Program-made: the position numbers and the translations under genes
DNA from: a virus
Taxonomy: Duplodnaviria > Caudoviricetes
Strand: one strand, 5' to 3'
Virus record (IMG/VR): IMGVR_UViG_3300037047_000246
Length of the DNA stretch: 64,000 nucleotides
In this document: positions 22,864 to 63,147 of the stretch, piece after piece
Layout of the letters: every line of letters starts with the position of its first letter
Position numbering within the stretch: the first letter of the stretch is position 1
Notes under the pieces: generated by a model
Database searches by the model: none
Seen by the model: only the letters and a program-made list of their open reading frames with translations
Told to the model about the DNA's origin: nothing

Positions 22864-23123
22864 TGCAACTTGTAGTGCCTCACCACATAGAGTTTCAACA
22901 GCATCCGGACGTGCTTGACATTCGCGTAATCAGGTACAGAGTTTTGTGCCGCAGGTGCGGATGCTGTTGTGAAGCTTCCCTGGACACATATTCGTACCTC
23001 AGCACTGGTGCGGGCGACAACAGGATACTGAGGCAGCTCATGCAGGAGTGGGAGATCGCGTTCCCCGCAGATTGCGACGAAGCTGCCTCTCTGAACCTAA
23101 TCAGGTCTGTGCAAGAAACCTAA
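22863..23123 (+). CDS. Small Cys-rich protein (CRRCG), paralog of the next gene
   Basis: TGATG overlap with the VWA stop; C-terminus DCDEAASLNLIRSVQET. Confidence 0.7.
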   Translation: MQLVVPHHIEFQQHPDVLDIRVIRYRVLCRRCGCCCEASLDTYSYLSTGAGDNRILRQLMQEWEIAFPADCDEAASLNLIRSVQET

Positions 23124-23137
23124 GGGTCCGGCCAAGC

Positions 23138-23398
23138 ATGACTGCTCACCAAGTCCAGTTCCACGCCTCGTCGGATGTTGCGACGAGCTTGCGGATGGGA
23201 TATGCTCTGCGGTGCCGCAGATGCGGCTCCAACGTCGCGGCATGGCTCGACATGAGGCATTTCAGGAACGTTCTCGGCACCAAAAGTCTCGAAGAGCGGA
23301 TGCACGTCAAGCTCGAGCTGGAGTGGACGCACCAAGTGCCTCATGACTGCGACGAAGCCATGGCGATCAACACGGTGCGCATGGTGCAAGAGTCGTGA
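23138..23398 (+). CDS. Small Cys-rich protein (CRRCG)
   Basis: C-terminus DCDEAMAINTVRMVQES. Confidence 0.7.
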   Translation: MTAHQVQFHASSDVATSLRMGYALRCRRCGSNVAAWLDMRHFRNVLGTKSLEERMHVKLELEWTHQVPHDCDEAMAINTVRMVQES

Positions 23399-23441
23399 GT
23401 CTCGCGCATTTTGTGGTTCGAATTCCGGCGCTTGGGCTACC

Positions 23442-23470
23442 TTGACTCGACCCGGACGAAGTGTTATTTT
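23442..23470 (+). promoter_or_regulatory. Sigma70-like promoter
   Basis: TTGACT-17 nt-TATTTT with extended -10 TG; predicted +1 near 23477, the A of an ATG. Confidence 0.6.
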
Positions 23471-23476
23471 TGAATT

Positions 23477-23515
23477 ATGCACTCGCTTAGATCTGACTGG
23501 AACTGCCACTTGTAA
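23477..23515 (+). CDS. Probable leaderless leader peptide MHSLRSDWNCHL (UAA stop; read-through gives LPRGPP...)
   Basis: ATG 6 nt after the -10 box, no SD; in frame with the downstream gene. Confidence 0.5.
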   Translation: MHSLRSDWNCHL

Positions 23516-23587
23516 CTACCTCGCGGTCCCCCGTCGCCGTCGCTGCTACCAACACCAGAGCAAGTGACGATTGAGACGGAGGACATC

Positions 23588-23953
23588 ATGAAGCAGTCAG
23601 TTGTAAGCATCAAGCATTGGATTAAGGCCAGCATGGCCGAATCGCTCGAGATCCGCAAGCAGATACGCGCATCTGAGGGCGACGAACGCTCCCGCCTCTG
23701 GGGATGTAAGCGCAGCCTTGGTGACGACACTCGCCATATGCTGCTTGCCTACGCGTTTCTGCGCGGCAGGCTGTACTCGGCGACAGAGTGGAAGTGCGCC
23801 CCCAATAACAAACCCCGCCCCTCCTTCGTGCAGCATTTCCTTGAGGTCTCTTTGCCCAAGGGAGAGCCTTTGCCGGCCGAGTGGGATAAAGATAGCATCA
23901 AGGCGTGGCTGGCCCGCCCGATGGCCTCCGAGGCCAAGGAGCAGGCAGCATGA
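23588..23953 (+). CDS. Conserved phage hypothetical protein (RHxxLAYAFLRG type)
   Basis: GGAGGA RBS; motif recalled from genes next to PTH2 in phages. Confidence 0.75.
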   Translation: MKQSVVSIKHWIKASMAESLEIRKQIRASEGDERSRLWGCKRSLGDDTRHMLLAYAFLRGRLYSATEWKCAPNNKPRPSFVQHFLEVSLPKGEPLPAEWDKDSIKAWLARPMASEAKEQAA

Positions 23954-24396
23954 GGACGATTGTCAAGACCGAGCTTGTGCCAGCCGAGGAGGTCACTTAC
24001 ACGACGTACGGCTGCGACCTGTGCGACTTCACGTCGGACGATGAAGACAACATCAAGCTGCACCACGGCAAGGAGCATGCGTGCAAGCGCAAGATGGAAG
24101 TGGACGGTGTCGAACTGTATTGGTTCGACACGGAGGAGGATGCCCAGACCTGGATCGAGCAGGATGAGTACGGCGCCGATGAGCGCAAGGTGCGTTGGTC
24201 TGACCCCGGATGGTACACCGCCTCGTGGTCGACCGGGCCGTGCAGGCGCGGCTGCTGTACGCGAAGCTGCCGATCGCTCGAATCTGTGGGCTCCTACCTG
24301 TCTGAACTGGAGTACGCGGCCGAGCAGGCCGAACAGCAGGCTGACAAGAAGCGCCGCCTGGCTCAGGCGATTCGCCAGGAGGTTGGCGATGGCTGA
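23950..24396 (+). CDS. Hypothetical protein with C2H2-like zinc finger
   Basis: CDLCDF...HHGKEH; ATGA overlap with the previous gene. Confidence 0.7.
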   Translation: MRTIVKTELVPAEEVTYTTYGCDLCDFTSDDEDNIKLHHGKEHACKRKMEVDGVELYWFDTEEDAQTWIEQDEYGADERKVRWSDPGWYTASWSTGPCRRGCCTRSCRSLESVGSYLSELEYAAEQAEQQADKKRRLAQAIRQEVGDG

Positions 24397-24715
24397 GAAG
24401 CTCTTTCTGGTCACTCGCGCAGATCTGCGGCCGGGTCAGCAGGCGGTTCAGGCTGCCCACGCAGCACACCAGTTTTGTGTCGATTTCCCAACTGAGTTCG
24501 CGGCCTGGTTTGAACGTTCCAACACTTTGGCAATGCTCACTGTGCCCGACGAACAGGCGCTGCGGCAGTTGGCTGACCTGGCAGATGACTGGGACTTGAA
24601 GTTGTCGATGTTTCGCGAGCCTGACCTTGGCAACGCTTTGACTGCTTTGGCGCTCGAGCCAGGTTCAGGCACCAGAAGGCTGTGCCGCAATCTGCCGCTA
24701 GCTCTCGGCGGCTGA
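24389..24715 (+). CDS. Peptidyl-tRNA hydrolase, PTH2 family
   Basis: LVTRADL.PGQQAVQAAHA, FREPDLGNALTALA; AGGAGG RBS. Confidence 0.85.
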   Translation: MAEKLFLVTRADLRPGQQAVQAAHAAHQFCVDFPTEFAAWFERSNTLAMLTVPDEQALRQLADLADDWDLKLSMFREPDLGNALTALALEPGSGTRRLCRNLPLALGG

Positions 24716-24788
24716 CTACCTCGGAAATTTAGCTGCCTGGAGCGTAGCGGCGGCCAGTGGAAGCCATCCGCGCGAAAGGTATCAAGAA

Positions 24789-25022
24789 GTGACATTCCCG
24801 GTGACCGAATCAGACCTGTGGAGCGTATACCCACGGGCGACCCACTGCTGGAGGCTCGTATCCACTGACGCGGACCGGGTCGAAGTGTACGAATGCGATC
24901 GGTGCTCGGCCAGGAAGTTCATCTACAACGACGTGAACGTTCAAGTGTATGACGCGGCTGGCCGAGAAGCGTCCATGGTCGAGTGCGAATACTACGGGAT
25001 AGCGAACGTTATGGAAGAGTGA
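24789..25022 (+). CDS. Small Cys-containing hypothetical protein
   Basis: HCW...CDRC; C-terminus CEYYGIANVMEE. Confidence 0.6.
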   Translation: MTFPVTESDLWSVYPRATHCWRLVSTDADRVEVYECDRCSARKFIYNDVNVQVYDAAGREASMVECEYYGIANVMEE

Positions 25023-25069: not shown

Positions 25070-25159
25070 GCCCTCGTAGCCCAGCGGTCGAAGGCAGGCG
25101 GCTTTAAACCGTCCACGAGCGAGAGCTCGTCACCGGGGGTTCGACTCCCTCCGAGGGCA
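25070..25159 (+). tRNA. Class II tRNA with anticodon UUA (ochre suppressor); amino acid uncertain (Tyr/Leu/Ser-like)
   Basis: Acceptor GCCCTCG/CGAGGGC with A73; D arm GCC/GGC; anticodon stem GGCGG/CCGTC with loop CT-TTA-AA; variable arm ACGAGC-GAGA-GCTCGT; T arm GGGGG-TTCGACT-CCCTC; CCA not encoded. Confidence 0.9.
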
Positions 25160-25160
25160 C

Positions 25161-25721
25161 TTACTGCGATCGTGACAGCTTGGCAGCTATTTTTTCGAGC
25201 TGAAGCTGGAAATTTTGCAAAACAAACGGCAGCGCTATGGAAACCCTGCCGTCTCCACGGTCCGCGCCGTATATTGTCAGATCGAACGCTCCCCAAGACA
25301 CTGGCGCAGGCAGCGGTCCTGCCGTTTTGGCACCAGGCATGTACGACAGCGTCACGTGCGGCTTGAACTCAGGCCATTTGGCGCTGTACGACACTCCTGA
25401 GAGGTCGAGCTCCTCTTTCAGGTCTCGCTCCAACTGCATGAGCTCAGGGGACTGCACCGGCAGGATAACTGGGGTGCCGTGGTGGCCCGGGTCGAACGAA
25501 GCCACTTCGCTGCATGTTAGCGTGAACGGCGACGTTCGGCGCGTGACCTTGTGGCAAGCCACCATTGCAGCCGCAAGCTGCTCCATCGATGCTCCGTCGC
25601 CGAGGTACACCACAGTCACGTGCATTTCAGACGCTGCTTGAACGTCGCCCGGCAGCGCGCCTGACATTTGCGCCAGAAGTCTGCCGACTTCCTGCGGGAC
25701 TCGCAGAGCTATCATGGCCAT
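25161..25721 (-). CDS. 2H phosphoesterase (LigT / Acb1-like)
   Basis: Two HxT motifs: MHVTVVY and KPHVTLSY. Confidence 0.85.
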   Translation of the reverse strand: MAMIALRVPQEVGRLLAQMSGALPGDVQAASEMHVTVVYLGDGASMEQLAAAMVACHKVTRRTSPFTLTCSEVASFDPGHHGTPVILPVQSPELMQLERDLKEELDLSGVSYSAKWPEFKPHVTLSYMPGAKTAGPLPAPVSWGAFDLTIYGADRGDGRVSIALPFVLQNFQLQLEKIAAKLSRSQ

Positions 25722-25753: not shown

Positions 25754-26650
25754 ATGCAGCGTGTGAACGATTTGTATTTGGGCCGCAACGCGCTTGGGCA
25801 CGCCGCATATGCCGGGCGCAATTTCGCTGTCGGAGACCTCGTGGCGCAGTTCTCTGGCGACATCTGCTCAGCTGAGGATCTGCCGGAAATATCGTCCCCG
25901 GAGGACGACAGGTACATGCAGGTGGGCAGAAGCGTCTACATGGGCCCTTCTGGCTGGTTCGACGATTACTGCAACCACTCGTGCGATCCGAACGCCGGCG
26001 TGGCGGACGTCGACGGGTCCATGTGGCTGATTGCCATTCGGCCGATTGAGGCCGGAGATGAAATCGTGTGGGACTACTCCACCACGATGGACGAAGACGA
26101 CTGGGAGATGGATTGCCGGTGCGGCAGCCCTGCGTGCAGAGGCCGAATCCGAGACTTCAAGCACCTGGAGCTCGGCTTGCAGCTCAAGTACGTCAGCCTA
26201 GGCATAGTGCCGGACTTTGTCCTGCAATCAGTGTCGCCTGACCTGCTGTCCTCGGCTCTCCGGTTCATGTCCGGGCAAGAGCCGGACGCGCCTTTGCTGG
26301 AGAAGCTTGCGCTGTCCATAGACGGCCCAAGCAAAAAGAAAAGCAAGGGCAAAGGGGGCAAGTCGCCTCCGACTGTGACTCTGCTCGACGTTGAAATGAC
26401 CGAGGACGGCGGCGTCAAACAGAGCTGGGGCGTGTACGCTGAGGGGCAGAAAGTTGGCGTACACTCGGTGACCGACGCCGAGGGGGACACGAAGATACTG
26501 GGCAACGATCTGGACCTTGGCGAAGGCGGATTGACCGCGCAGCAAGCAGTTGCCCACATCCTGCAGGGTGCCCATCCGAGGTACTATCCGAAGCCTGGGA
26601 AAACTGTGGTGCTGGACAGCGCATTCGTGCACAGCGCCTCTCGGAGCTGA
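25754..26650 (+). CDS. SET-domain protein-lysine methyltransferase with post-SET Cys cluster and C-terminal extension
   Basis: YCNHSCDPN, IEAGDEIVWDY, CRCGSPAC. Confidence 0.9.
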   Translation: MQRVNDLYLGRNALGHAAYAGRNFAVGDLVAQFSGDICSAEDLPEISSPEDDRYMQVGRSVYMGPSGWFDDYCNHSCDPNAGVADVDGSMWLIAIRPIEAGDEIVWDYSTTMDEDDWEMDCRCGSPACRGRIRDFKHLELGLQLKYVSLGIVPDFVLQSVSPDLLSSALRFMSGQEPDAPLLEKLALSIDGPSKKKSKGKGGKSPPTVTLLDVEMTEDGGVKQSWGVYAEGQKVGVHSVTDAEGDTKILGNDLDLGEGGLTAQQAVAHILQGAHPRYYPKPGKTVVLDSAFVHSASRS

Positions 26651-40616: not shown

Positions 40617-40652
40617 ATGAGCTCTGCTAAAACTATCCGCTTCATCATCTGA
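40617..40652 (+). CDS. Possible leaderless uORF MSSAKTIRFII (UGA stop) upstream of the release factor
   Basis: TGgTAGAGT extended -10 ends 6 nt before the ATG. Read-through would stop at TGA 40692-40694, overlapping the RF start ATG. Confidence 0.35.
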   Translation: MSSAKTIRFII

Positions 40653-40690
40653 CATAAGCTCGTGCTGAGCTTCCAATGTAATTTCCTTGC

Positions 40691-41351
40691 ATGATCATCG
40701 AAATACGCGCAGCAGAAGGTGGACAGGACGCCAAACTTCTCGTGCTGGAACAGCTGAGCGTGTACGCAAAGCGCGCCGCTCGCCACTGTCTTTGACCTCG
40801 AAATCTTGGACCAGCGCCCAGGGTCGGTGACCCTGCGGTCCACAAGCCCCAAAGCAGAAGAGTTTTTCCGGAACGAATCAGGAGGTATGCGCTGGCAGCG
40901 GGTGCCGCCCACCGAGAAGCGCGGGCGTGTGCAGACCAGCACAGTTACTGTGGCAGTCTTGCCGGAGCCCGATTTCGAGCAGATGCGCATCAGAGACAGC
41001 GACCTGTCTTTTCGCACCTGCAGAGGGTCCGGGCCTGGCGGACAGAATCGCAACAAGCTCGAGACTGCTGTGCAGGTCACGCATGTGCCGACTGGGCTCT
41101 GCGTCCGGTGCGAGACTGAGCGGTCGCAGCTGCAAAACAAGCAGGGAGCGTTGGCGCTGCTCCGAGCTCGGTTGTGGCAAATTCAGCTGCAGGGGCGCAT
41201 CGACGCGCGTGCTGCTGACCGGAGGCAGCAGATAGGTTCCGGAGAGCGCGGAGACAAGCGCCGGACCATAGCTTTGCAGCGAGACCAAGTTGTCGATCAC
41301 GTGACTGGCCAGACCTGGAAAGCGAAAGCGTATTTGCGAGGTGAGTGGTAA
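40691..41351 (+). CDS. Class I peptide release factor, RF1-like (PxT, GGQ), lacking domain 1; split by a +1 frameshift at CTT-TGA-C (40790-40796)
   Basis: 0 frame MIIEIRAAEGGQDAK...ARHCL*; +1 frame DLEILDQ...ESGGMRWQRVPPTEKRGRVQTSTVTVAVLPE...GSGPGGQNRNK...SQLQNK. Confidence 0.85.
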
Positions 41352-62124: not shown

Positions 62125-63147
62125 ATGTCCAAGGACGACAAGCTGAAGAGTGACGCTAGCCAGGACGCTGGGGCGGGTCTTGACTGCGGCACTATGAACT
62201 TCGTGGCAGCGCGGCGCGGCAGCAACAAGGGCGTAAAGACGTCTAGGCTTCGCAATGCGTTTCTTGATTTGCCGCCAGAGCACAAGCGCATGCTCAAGCT
62301 GTCGAAGACGAGCTACATAGAATACGACGGACGTCTGCTTGTGATTGGTGACGAAGCCATTTCAACCGCCAATTTGTTCAACAAAGAGGCTCGCAGACCG
62401 ATGGCAGCCGGCATCATTGCGGCAGGCGAAATCGATGCTCAAGGGGTCATGGCTGTCATGGTCAGGCACTTGCTCGGAGACCCGAGACACGGCGAACCAT
62501 GTTGCTTTTCCGTGCCCGCGCCGGCGCTGGACGTGCAGGAGTCCGACACCACGTACCACAAAGCCGTGCTGTCGAAAATACTGACTGAGCTCGGGTACTC
62601 GCCTCAGCCAGTGAATGAAGCCCTGGCGGTTGTGTACTCGGAATGCGTCCAGGAGAACTTCTCAGGACTTGCGCTGTCGTTCGGGTCAGGTATGACCAAC
62701 GTGTGCCTTGCCTGCAACGCGATGTCTGCCCTTGAATTCAGCTTGGCACGAGGCGGCGACTGGGTGGATAGAGGAGCGGCGCGTGCAGTAGGTACGACTT
62801 CGGCCAAAATCTGCGCAATCAAGGAAGCTGGAGTGGACCTGGCTGCGACCAAGTCTCGAGAGGAAGAAGCCATCGCGTTGTATGTGCAAGCGCTTATCGA
62901 CTACGCCATGGACAACATCATCGCTCGCTTCTCCAGCGCCCGCGGGGAAATTCTCGTTCCGAAGCCGATACCGATCGTCATTAGCGGAGGAACCTCTCTC
63001 GCTGGCGGATTCGTCGACAAGTTCAAAGAGAGGTTTGAGCTGTACCGGAGCAAGTTCCCCGTGCAAGTGTCGGACATCAGACCCGCGAAGGATCCGATGA
63101 CTGCTGTTGCGTCTGGACTGCTTCTGTACTCGCAAATGGAAGACTAG
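62125..63147 (+). CDS. Actin-like ATPase (ParM/MreB/AlpC superfamily)
   Basis: GLDCGTMN (phosphate 1), SFGSGMTN (phosphate 2), ISGGTS (adenosine), DPMTAVASG (connect 2); GGAG RBS. Confidence 0.85.
   Translation: MSKDDKLKSDASQDAGAGLDCGTMNFVAARRGSNKGVKTSRLRNAFLDLPPEHKRMLKLSKTSYIEYDGRLLVIGDEAISTANLFNKEARRPMAAGIIAAGEIDAQGVMAVMVRHLLGDPRHGEPCCFSVPAPALDVQESDTTYHKAVLSKILTELGYSPQPVNEALAVVYSECVQENFSGLALSFGSGMTNVCLACNAMSALEFSLARGGDWVDRGAARAVGTTSAKICAIKEAGVDLAATKSREEEAIALYVQALIDYAMDNIIARFSSARGEILVPKPIPIVISGGTSLAGGFVDKFKERFELYRSKFPVQVSDIRPAKDPMTAVASGLLLYSQMED

Follow-up and report, generated by a model that had tools for sequence, protein, structure and literature searches.

A candidate stop-gated arrest leader upstream of a phage gene run that ends in an ochre-suppressor tRNA

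We analysed a short leader that precedes a run of genes in a phage of the Caudoviricetes (Duplodnaviria; IMG/VR virus record IMGVR_UViG_3300037047_000246). The window, as we call the whole stretch of 64,000 nucleotides (nt) under analysis, is taken from the minus strand of this 362.5-kilobase (kb) record, which has direct terminal repeats; GC content is 57%. The leader occupies the 189-nt spacer between a small upstream gene that ends at 23398 and the gene for the protein P0001 that starts at 23588, and the gene run that follows ends in a transfer RNA (tRNA) with the anticodon UUA. The features of the locus, including the short open reading frame (mini-ORF) of the leader and the Shine-Dalgarno (SD) sequence of P0001, are as follows, with coordinates in the window.

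23394 to 23416, plus strand: terminator-like hairpin (23394-23406) and T-rich tail, directly 3' of the upstream gene, whose stop codon is 23396-23398 (consensus scan)
23442 to 23470, plus strand: sigma-70-type promoter, with -35 TTGACT at 23442-23447, a 17-nt spacer, TG at 23462-23463 and -10 TATTTT at 23465-23470 (sequence; consensus scan, TG included)
23477 to 23515, plus strand: mini-ORF MHSLRSDWNCHL, 12 codons from ATG 23477, and gating stop TAA at 23513-23515 (sequence)
23516 to 23533, plus strand: read-through codons L-P-R-G-P-P, with the predicted arrest motif RGPP at 23522-23533; the peptide is conserved and the differences are synonymous
23526 to 23584, plus strand: SD-sequestering hairpin, outer stem 23526-23535/23575-23584 and inner stem 23538-23549/23558-23569 (minimum-free-energy folds)
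23578 to 23590, plus strand: SD GGAGGA (23578-23583) and ATG 23588 of P0001 (sequence)
23588 to 23953, plus strand: P0001, 121 amino acids, the first gene under the proposed control; family of unknown function, tied to suppressor tRNAs in many phages
23950 to 24396, plus strand: 148-amino-acid Cys/His zinc-finger-like protein, CxxC...HH...HxC (sequence pattern)
24389 to 24715, plus strand: PTH2-type peptidyl-tRNA hydrolase, 108 amino acids, with an 8-nt overlap with the previous gene (Pfam PF01981)
24789 to 25022, plus strand: 77-amino-acid ORF between PTH2 and the tRNA, with homologues in loci L002, L013, L030 and L033
25070 to 25160, plus strand: ochre-suppressor tRNA, anticodon UUA, 91 nt, long variable arm, last in the gene run (ARAGORN; Rfam RF00005, 50.6 bits)

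An earlier, sequence-only reading of this DNA had proposed a promoter of the form TTGACT-17-(TG)TATTTT with a start codon at 23477. We found both in place, and the consensus scan lists the promoter too. The ATG lies six bases 3' of the -10 box and has no SD, and the messenger RNA (mRNA) is predicted to start at or next to AUG 23477 and to be leaderless. The terminator-like hairpin behind the upstream gene suggests that the leader begins its own transcription unit. As that reading had also described, the frame runs from MHSLRSDWNCHL through TAA (23513-23515) into LPRGPPSPSLLPTPEQVTIETEDI, so that LPRGPPSP follows the stop, and then stays open, in frame, into ATG 23588. This uninterrupted run into the gene is real in the window phage; it is not conserved in the relatives described below, and we regard it as incidental.

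The Gly-Pro-Pro codons of the read-through frame are complementary to the SD region of P0001: GTCCCCCGTC (23526-23535) pairs at 9 of 10 positions with GACGGAGGAC (23575-23584), which holds the SD. The pairing had been proposed beforehand, and the exact stem is recovered in the minimum-free-energy (MFE) fold of the window leader, which consists of exactly this outer stem and the inner stem (z-score -2.5 for the leader; -2.7 for the piece from stop to start). In silico, GGAGGA of the window leader has a mean unpaired probability of 0.19 in the free RNA. The value is 0.17 when the footprint of a ribosome terminating at UAA is masked (23498-23525), and 0.82 when the masked footprint is that of a ribosome with the first Pro codon in its P site (23516-23543). 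In this footprint model, then, a ribosome that terminates at the stop falls just short of the stem, which starts at 23526, and one at RGP/P is predicted to hold the anti-SD arm and to free the SD. The SD is therefore paired with leader codons at or next to the putative stall site, as in attenuators of the ermC and secM type. We rejected the hairpin as an intrinsic terminator, because no U-run follows it. As a separate observation, the window mini-ORF carries a 21-nt insertion relative to L002, a related locus described below, and in the MFE fold 23485-23499, within or next to this insertion, pairs with 23594-23608, which are codons 3-7 of P0001. The pairing, CUGACUG/CAGUCAG plus GCUUA/UAAGC, forms a second, outer helix that closes the whole leader in this fold.

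The RGPP motif at 23522-23533 had been read as a variant of RAPP-type arrest motifs, and it does conform to their R-(A/G)-P-(P/G) core. RAPP and RGPP cause robust arrest in several sequence contexts, without relief by EF-P (PMC12992588; PMC7897499); of these cores RGPP is reported to be the most robust, whereas RSPP and RDPP are partly permissive (PMC12992588). By analogy, from the motif itself, a ribosome would arrest at RGPP while its P site is occupied by peptidyl-tRNA and its A site by Pro-tRNA. The leader peptide has no hydrophobic segment of the kind found in Sec/YidC monitoring substrates. The absence of a signal or transmembrane segment, together with the non-Sec nature of the downstream genes, points to an arrest-peptide-like action rather than to a monitoring substrate of Sec/YidC.

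We assessed whether this arrangement is shared by relatives of P0001. An exhaustive profile search placed 290 representatives in the family at E <= 1e-3, and loci were drawn from identity look-ups, from scans of IMG/VR and metagenome contigs with a profile made from a 6-sequence alignment, and from GenBank phages. A scan of viral contigs with P0001 as a single protein found no relatives, 5 kb of window DNA had no match among GenBank phages, and neither P0001 nor the L020 homologue had one there by tblastn; a homologue of the L026 type was the sole tblastn query that reached cultured GenBank phages.

One close homologue of P0001 (68% identity) lies at locus L002, on a 430-kb metagenome contig with the same gene order. 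The two spacers share the -35 element, the 17-nt spacing, the TG-extended -10 element, TAA, LPRGPPSPSL and the hairpin. The mini-ORF of L002 reads MMHFM, with its ATG six bases after the -10 box. Over LPRGPPSPSL the two leaders differ at 4 positions, all synonymous and all third codon positions. Immediately after SPSL a 1-nt indel shifts the frame of one relative to the other, which indicates that conservation in that part is at the RNA level. The L002 hairpin is perfect (z-score -5.8), and in its inner stem a C-G pair has become U-A, a compensatory change.

Conservation of a short upstream ORF, a stop and RxPP ahead of homologues was among the checks that the sequence-only reading had named, and 27 further distinct loci, in phages that range from GC-rich to AT-rich, have this leader ahead of their P0001-family gene. 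It consists of a mini-ORF of 2-12 codons (2-8 in the relatives), a stop, 2-6 further codons and an xPP core, with 70-91 nt from stop to gene start and 44-61 nt from the end of the Pro-Pro codons to gene start. In 26 loci a single frame holds the start, the stop and RxPP. Where the read-through frame ends varies: at a TGA that overlaps the gene start (ATGA) in L002 and L012, in the hairpin loop in L009, and right after RAPP, ~55 nt before the start, in L018 and L019; in the window phage alone it runs on, in frame, into the gene. Since the loci do not keep the frame beyond RxPP, what they have in common is that a ribosome reaches RxPP, not that it translates as far as the gene start.

The structure is shared as well. 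Pairing between the Pro-Pro codons and the SD appears in 20 of 25 MFE folds (mean z-score -3.5), although the stem sequences are wholly different; in the group with RSPP (L012, L014 and L035), the SD pairs with bases just 3' of the Pro-Pro codons. The consensus fold of 6 close sequences contains 3 compensatory pairs. The promoter is likewise conserved: at 17 loci without a tRNA directly upstream, a TTGAC-17-TAnnnT promoter ends its -10 box 6-11 nt before the leader ATG (nearer ATGs for L030, L033 and L038 were read by eye), with a gap of exactly 6 nt in the window, L002, L009, L013, L030 and L037. Such spacing fits a leaderless or nearly leaderless mRNA. Genome-wide, extended -10 boxes 5-8 nt before gene starts number 3, counted on predicted gene starts that are biased towards SD sequences. 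In L024, L026 and L045 the suppressor tRNA lies ~20 nt upstream of the leader and the leader ATG has an SD, which fits a tRNA-mRNA co-transcript.

The motif after the stop varies in a way that points to the peptide. Arg is present in 25 of 26 loci, followed by G, A, S, D or P and then by PP. It is encoded by CGC, CGT, CGA, AGA or AGG, from both Arg codon families, and at the second motif position Gly, Ala or Ser occurs with a free third base. The use of five codons of two families for Arg indicates that RxPP is selected as a peptide; a nucleotide constraint from anti-SD pairing cannot yield such codon variation, which is thus a signature of peptide selection. Cores across the family are RGPP, RAPP, RSPP and RDPP, and more rarely TGPP, RPPP, KKPP and YKPP. 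The pattern M-x(0-13)-stop-x(1-8)-R[AGS]PP occurs 4 times in the 362.5-kb genome, both strands included, and among these the leader copy alone sits 30-110 nt upstream of a predicted gene.

Variant leaders, of the forms MK-UAG-VYKPP and xIEPL-UAG-IKKPP, also occur in cultured phages, namely Stenotrophomonas phages DLP_5, DLP_3 and Summit and Agrobacterium phages OLIVR1-3. In DLP_5 (L078, MG189906, 2340-2872) the leader reads MK-TAG-VYKPP-TAA, and an annotated tRNA-Sup-CTA follows right after the gene; the annotated coding sequence DLP05_071 starts in the leader region, upstream of the inferred start of the family gene. The leader of OLIVR1 (L079, MT234338, 2324-2500) reads (GTG)IEPL-TAG-IKKPP-TAG and has an upstream tRNA with an 8-nt loop containing CUA.

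The most telling comparison concerns the suppressor tRNA. The UUA tRNA noted earlier 1.5 kb downstream of the leader is present at 25070-25160. Its anticodon loop is canonical, with 7 nt reading C-U-UUA-A-A, and has the U33 and the purine 37 expected of a nonsense-suppressor tRNA; it would decode UAA, judging from this loop. As a class II tRNA with A73, it is of Leu, Tyr or Ser type. We found that the leader stop matches the suppressor anticodon in 20 of the 20 loci in which both were seen, with no discordant case (8 TAA/UUA, 10 TAG/CUA and 2 TGA/UCA).

TAA/UUA: window, L002, L012, L013, L014, L030, L033, L045
TAG/CUA: L015, L017, L018, L020, L023, L024, L026, L043, L047, Stenotrophomonas phage DLP_5
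TGA/UCA: L016, L038

Three of these matches were predicted blind. The DNA fetched for L014, L015 and L016 held no tRNA, so the anticodon was predicted from the leader and the tRNAs of the whole records were listed afterwards. L014 (leader TAA) has a single tRNA, UUA; L015 (leader TAG) has a single tRNA, CUA; and L016 (leader TGA) has 38 tRNAs, of which the sole suppressor is UCA, ~5 kb downstream on the same strand, each as predicted. On a maximum-likelihood protein tree, obtained by a quick search and with several weakly supported branches, we count no fewer than 5 switches of the leader stop and no fewer than 4 of the anticodon, and the two invariably switch jointly; L015 (TAG/CUA), for example, is sister to L038 (TGA/UCA).

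The tRNA itself is exchangeable. It is a 91-92-nt class II tRNA in the window, L012 and L013 and a 74-nt class I tRNA in L002 (6577-6650, in the same relative place as in the window), L030 and L033, and all six loci keep the UUA anticodon and the TAA leader despite this swap. What is retained is the decoding property and not the tRNA body; the amino acid is presumably not retained across the swap. The sequence-only reading had supposed that the leader senses termination failure or ochre suppression, with the tRNA as a possible feedback input. The agreement of stop and anticodon bears out the link to suppression, and the simplest input is the tRNA that the phage itself encodes, not a general failure of termination. 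In AT-rich relatives we also observed transfer-messenger RNA genes beside tRNA arrays, 0.7-2.5 kb upstream of the leader cassette (L017:50-409, L018:1882-2235 and L020:273-636).

The phage otherwise uses the standard code. It ends 69 of 482 predicted genes with TAA as a normal stop, and coding density under the standard code is 0.91. A genome-wide reassignment of TAA was considered and rejected, as there is no TAA-specific excess of coding extensions that would call for an alternative code. To our knowledge, the stop reassignments described for phages concern TAG and TGA and not TAA.

Together, these comparisons make it likely that 23442-23587 is a cis-acting translational switch for the operon of P0001, the zinc-finger-like protein, PTH2 and the 77-amino-acid protein, in a gene run that ends in tRNA(UUA). 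We infer the following course of events. A host-type promoter would drive transcription from AUG 23477 or a position next to it, and ribosomes would translate the 12-codon mini-ORF. Without suppression they would terminate at UAA 23513 with a footprint that stops before 23526, the Gly-Pro-Pro codons would keep the SD GGAGGA paired, and P0001 would be off. Once tRNA(UUA) is made, charged and decoding, some ribosomes would read UAA and proceed six codons to Arg-Gly-Pro-Pro, where they would arrest as they do with RAPP/RGPP peptides, with Pro codons in the P and A sites. The arrested ribosome would keep the anti-SD arm in its mRNA channel, and the SD and AUG 23588, 45-55 nt downstream, would be free for other ribosomes. 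Overlapping stops and starts would relay the signal to the zinc-finger and PTH2 genes. A long-lived arrest would convert rare ochre read-through into sustained opening of the SD, and the stop has probably to be read by the phage's UAA-reading tRNA. The central proposal of the sequence-only reading, that reaching RGPP opens the stem and switches on the downstream genes, is thus supported by comparison, through the conserved leader, the peptide-selected RxPP, the match of stop and anticodon, and the promoter; the in-frame run into the gene that had accompanied it has no such support.

Several observations weigh against this interpretation. Some concern the relatives. A leader was not found at L025, and L029 has only a doubtful one (MHC-TGA-PTSPP). 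At L028, RGPP is shifted by +1 with respect to the frame of GTG-TAT-TAG. Others concern the arrest. The cores TGPP, RPPP and RDPP, and KKPP/YKPP of cultured phages, are weaker or untried, so that slow Pro-Pro decoding or the mere passage of a ribosome might suffice. The nascent chain at the second Pro is 19 residues long in the window and as short as 9-12 residues in relatives, and RAPP-type arrest has been studied with longer nascent chains. Both release factors recognise UAA, and suppression of ochre codons tends to be inefficient. Since the mini-ORF has no SD, its translation hinges on the putative leaderless start. The window hairpin is only moderate (z-score -2.5 to -2.7), and in 5 of 25 MFE folds the Pro-Pro codons are not directly paired with the SD. 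We saw no in-frame use of TAA in the genes of the phage genome that would account for the suppressor. Finally, in the sole RNA run that holds the phage, metatranscriptome X7, contigs cover only 23000-23127 and 24673-24898 of this region, and the leader lies outside them.

Two of the divergent loci have further features. At L028:2850-2950 GTG TAT TAG is followed by ...LPRGPP and a stop in the +1 frame, which could be a frameshift-gated or a degenerate variant, and just upstream of this leader is a tRNA-like element with the loop CUUCUAA that is uncalled at default thresholds. L027 has a TGA leader with RPPP and likewise a tRNA-like element upstream. ARAGORN with relaxed settings returned only noise upstream of the L027 and L028 leaders.

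Of the other explanations, the one that survives best keeps the same gate and does without a durable arrest: read-through ribosomes, slowed at Pro-Pro, would unwind the hairpin in passing, and P0001 would be initiated through transient opening or by termination and reinitiation. We consider this unlikely. It would suit the ATGA at which the read-through frame ends in L002 and L012, the frame shared with the gene in the window, and the weak cores TGPP, KKPP and YKPP of several relatives. However, the frame end is not conserved (in L018 and L019 it follows RAPP directly, in L009 it falls in the loop), so coupling by proximity cannot be the common mechanism, and the element that is conserved is Arg-x-Pro-Pro at the amino-acid level, a documented arrest core (PMC12992588).

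It is more improbable that the leader mainly senses release-factor activity, through depletion or inhibition of a host release factor (RF) or through a phage RF1-like factor, and that the tRNA merely co-occurs. Read-through is indeed a competition between tRNA and release factor, and the phage encodes a truncated RF1-like GGQ protein at 40691-41351. Against this stand the co-variation of stop and anticodon at 20 of 20 loci, with at least 4 joint switches, and the place of the tRNA within the cassette, 1.5 kb downstream in the window and directly upstream in L024, L026 and L045; moreover, because both release factors read UAA, an RF-specific signal fits the TAA class poorly. The RF1-like region spans window positions 40618-41351 (plus strand). 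Its protein (40691-41351) matches NCBIfam prfA (E 2e-51) over RF1 169-320, has the PPT codon-recognition tripeptide and GGQ, and lacks domain 1. A 34-codon ORF from ATG 40691 ends in CTT TGA C (40790-40796), the prfB frameshift heptamer, and the RF domain resumes in the +1 frame; an 11-codon ATG ORF that ends in TGA (40618-40653) begins six bases after a TGgTAGAGT box.

An inverted logic is very improbable. In that case stalling at RGPP, or read-through, would repress the downstream genes by blocking or mRNA cleavage, and the operon would be off once the tRNA works. Stalled ribosomes can recruit rescue and cleavage pathways. But the free leader already hides the SD (0.19) and the arrested state alone frees it (0.82), the stall site lies 44-61 nt from the start, which leaves space for an initiating ribosome, and the layout resembles the known ON switches secM-secA and ermC. 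Scarcely credible, finally, is a plain SD-masking hairpin in the 5' untranslated region whose mini-ORF, stop and RGPP are by-products of a CCUCC anti-SD and of chance: CCUCC does give Pro-Pro in one of three frames and 24 stop-free codons are not unusual at 58% GC, but the comparative sequence data already contradict this explanation, which accounts neither for the frame shared by start, stop and RxPP in 26 loci nor for Arg encoded by five codons of two families, the match of stop and anticodon, blind predictions included, or the rarity of the pattern in the genome.

The genes downstream had been listed as a hypothetical protein, a zinc finger and PTH2, and they hold up as such: PTH2 is assigned by Pfam, and the 148-amino-acid protein has the Cys/His pattern. 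P0001 itself matches nothing in Pfam, PHROGs, NCBIfam or the ESM Atlas. Its AlphaFold2 model (mean predicted local distance difference test, pLDDT, 94) is a long helical hairpin with a small helical bundle and gave no functional match by Foldseek against the PDB and the clustered AlphaFold database. Since some homologues are 150-190 amino acids long, we considered that the leader might be a degenerate N-terminal extension of P0001 and rejected this, as in none of the longer homologues do the extra residues resemble the leader; in most of them these residues are a family-internal helical segment. Many members of the family (P0001 of the window; P0004-P0153) end in ...E-A-A or ...A-A, and as such AA-COOH ends recall ssrA-type tags, the proteins might be unstable.

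The start of the Cys/His gene overlaps the P0001 stop (ATGA), so the two genes would be translationally coupled. PTH2 is a divergent member of its family, with 28.6 bits against a Pfam cut-off of 23 and a weak score of 23.7 bits against 126 for the NCBIfam Pth2 equivalog. It lies downstream of the family gene in 21 of 28 loci, and may clear short peptidyl-tRNAs that arise from the leader or from read-through products. Beyond the gene run, a convergent gene at 25161-25721 (minus strand) that abuts the tRNA 3' end encodes a 2H phosphoesterase (LigT/RNA 2',3'-cyclic phosphodiesterase, with matches to Acb1 too), kept at the same place in L002, L013, L030 and L033. The window also holds a SET-domain protein (PF00856, E 1e-10) at 25763-26650 (plus strand) and a Volactin-family protein (PF25216, E 2e-71) at 62125-63147 (plus strand).

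A broader function can be imagined for the cassette of leader, P0001, PTH2 and suppressor tRNA, namely as a checkpoint of the decoding state, in which P0001 and PTH2 are licensed once the stop-reading tRNA works and a feedback loop flips the cell into a read-through state. This is a speculative extension that we hold to be possible, if doubtful. Under it, P0001 might, for instance, work against release factors or in aid of the tRNA, and PTH2 might remove peptidyl-tRNAs that have dropped off or are arrested.

The leader can be placed beside several known systems. It shares with the arrest peptides ApdA, ApdP, ApcA, SecM (RAGP) and the Streptomyces RAPP/RGPP upstream ORFs (PMC7897499; PMC10951233; PMC12992588) an Arg-(Ala/Gly)-Pro-Pro core that ends a short upstream ORF, and a placement in which a stalled ribosome would expose a downstream SD. 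Those peptides are secretory or membrane monitoring substrates that are released by the pulling force of Sec or YidC and that regulate localisation machinery. By contrast, the leader has no signal sequence, its chain of 19 residues would never leave the tunnel, its motif is gated by an in-frame stop, and it would regulate phage genes tied to a suppressor tRNA. With ermC and secM-secA attenuation it shares a leader ORF, a stall in a hairpin arm and a sequestered SD that is freed for a second ribosome; there, antibiotic or secretion status acts on the stalled ribosome, whereas the signal of the leader would act earlier, at the passing of the stop codon. The in-frame UGA of prfB (RF2) is likewise an early in-frame stop that serves as a sensor of decoding versus termination. 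In prfB, however, a +1 frameshift within its own coding sequence senses RF2, whereas the leader would use read-through into an arrest motif in a separate ORF, with a dedicated tRNA as partner.

The nearest parallel is engineered. In the tna leader with an introduced UAG (Liu, Yanofsky, Arkin et al. 2011, as described in section 6 of the review PMC6412442), downstream genes depend on suppression of a stop in the leader peptide, as they would here. According to that section the tna switch is transcriptional, acting via Rho and a rut site, and relies on an orthogonal tRNA with an unnatural amino acid, whereas the leader is natural, phage-encoded and predicted to be translational. Phages that recode stop codons reassign TAG or TGA with the help of suppressor tRNAs (bioRxiv 10.1101/2021.08.26.457843). 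They share with this phage an encoded suppressor tRNA and the idea that read-through capacity times expression; unlike them, this phage has no in-frame TAA in its genes. A full-text search of the literature found no description of a natural stop-gated arrest leader or of a cis-acting leader that reads out a suppressor.

From its sequence, then, the design looks like a stop-gated form of arrest-peptide attenuation and like a natural sensor of stop-codon read-through. Known attenuators respond to antibiotics, metabolites or secretion, and the sensing of stop decoding would, if true, be a new class of input. The leader offers a testable handle on why many phages with the standard code carry suppressor tRNAs, and it points to the P0001 family and PTH2 as likely effectors of suppressor-tRNA biology. 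The idea could be tried at the bench in the cultured phages that carry variant leaders, and synthetic biology, whose stop-gated leaders have until now been engineered ones, would gain a ready-made natural part. It also suggests a way in which a virus may time or check a change in decoding. If the cassette is indeed a checkpoint, it would be a natural circuit that measures codon meaning, for all three stop codons.

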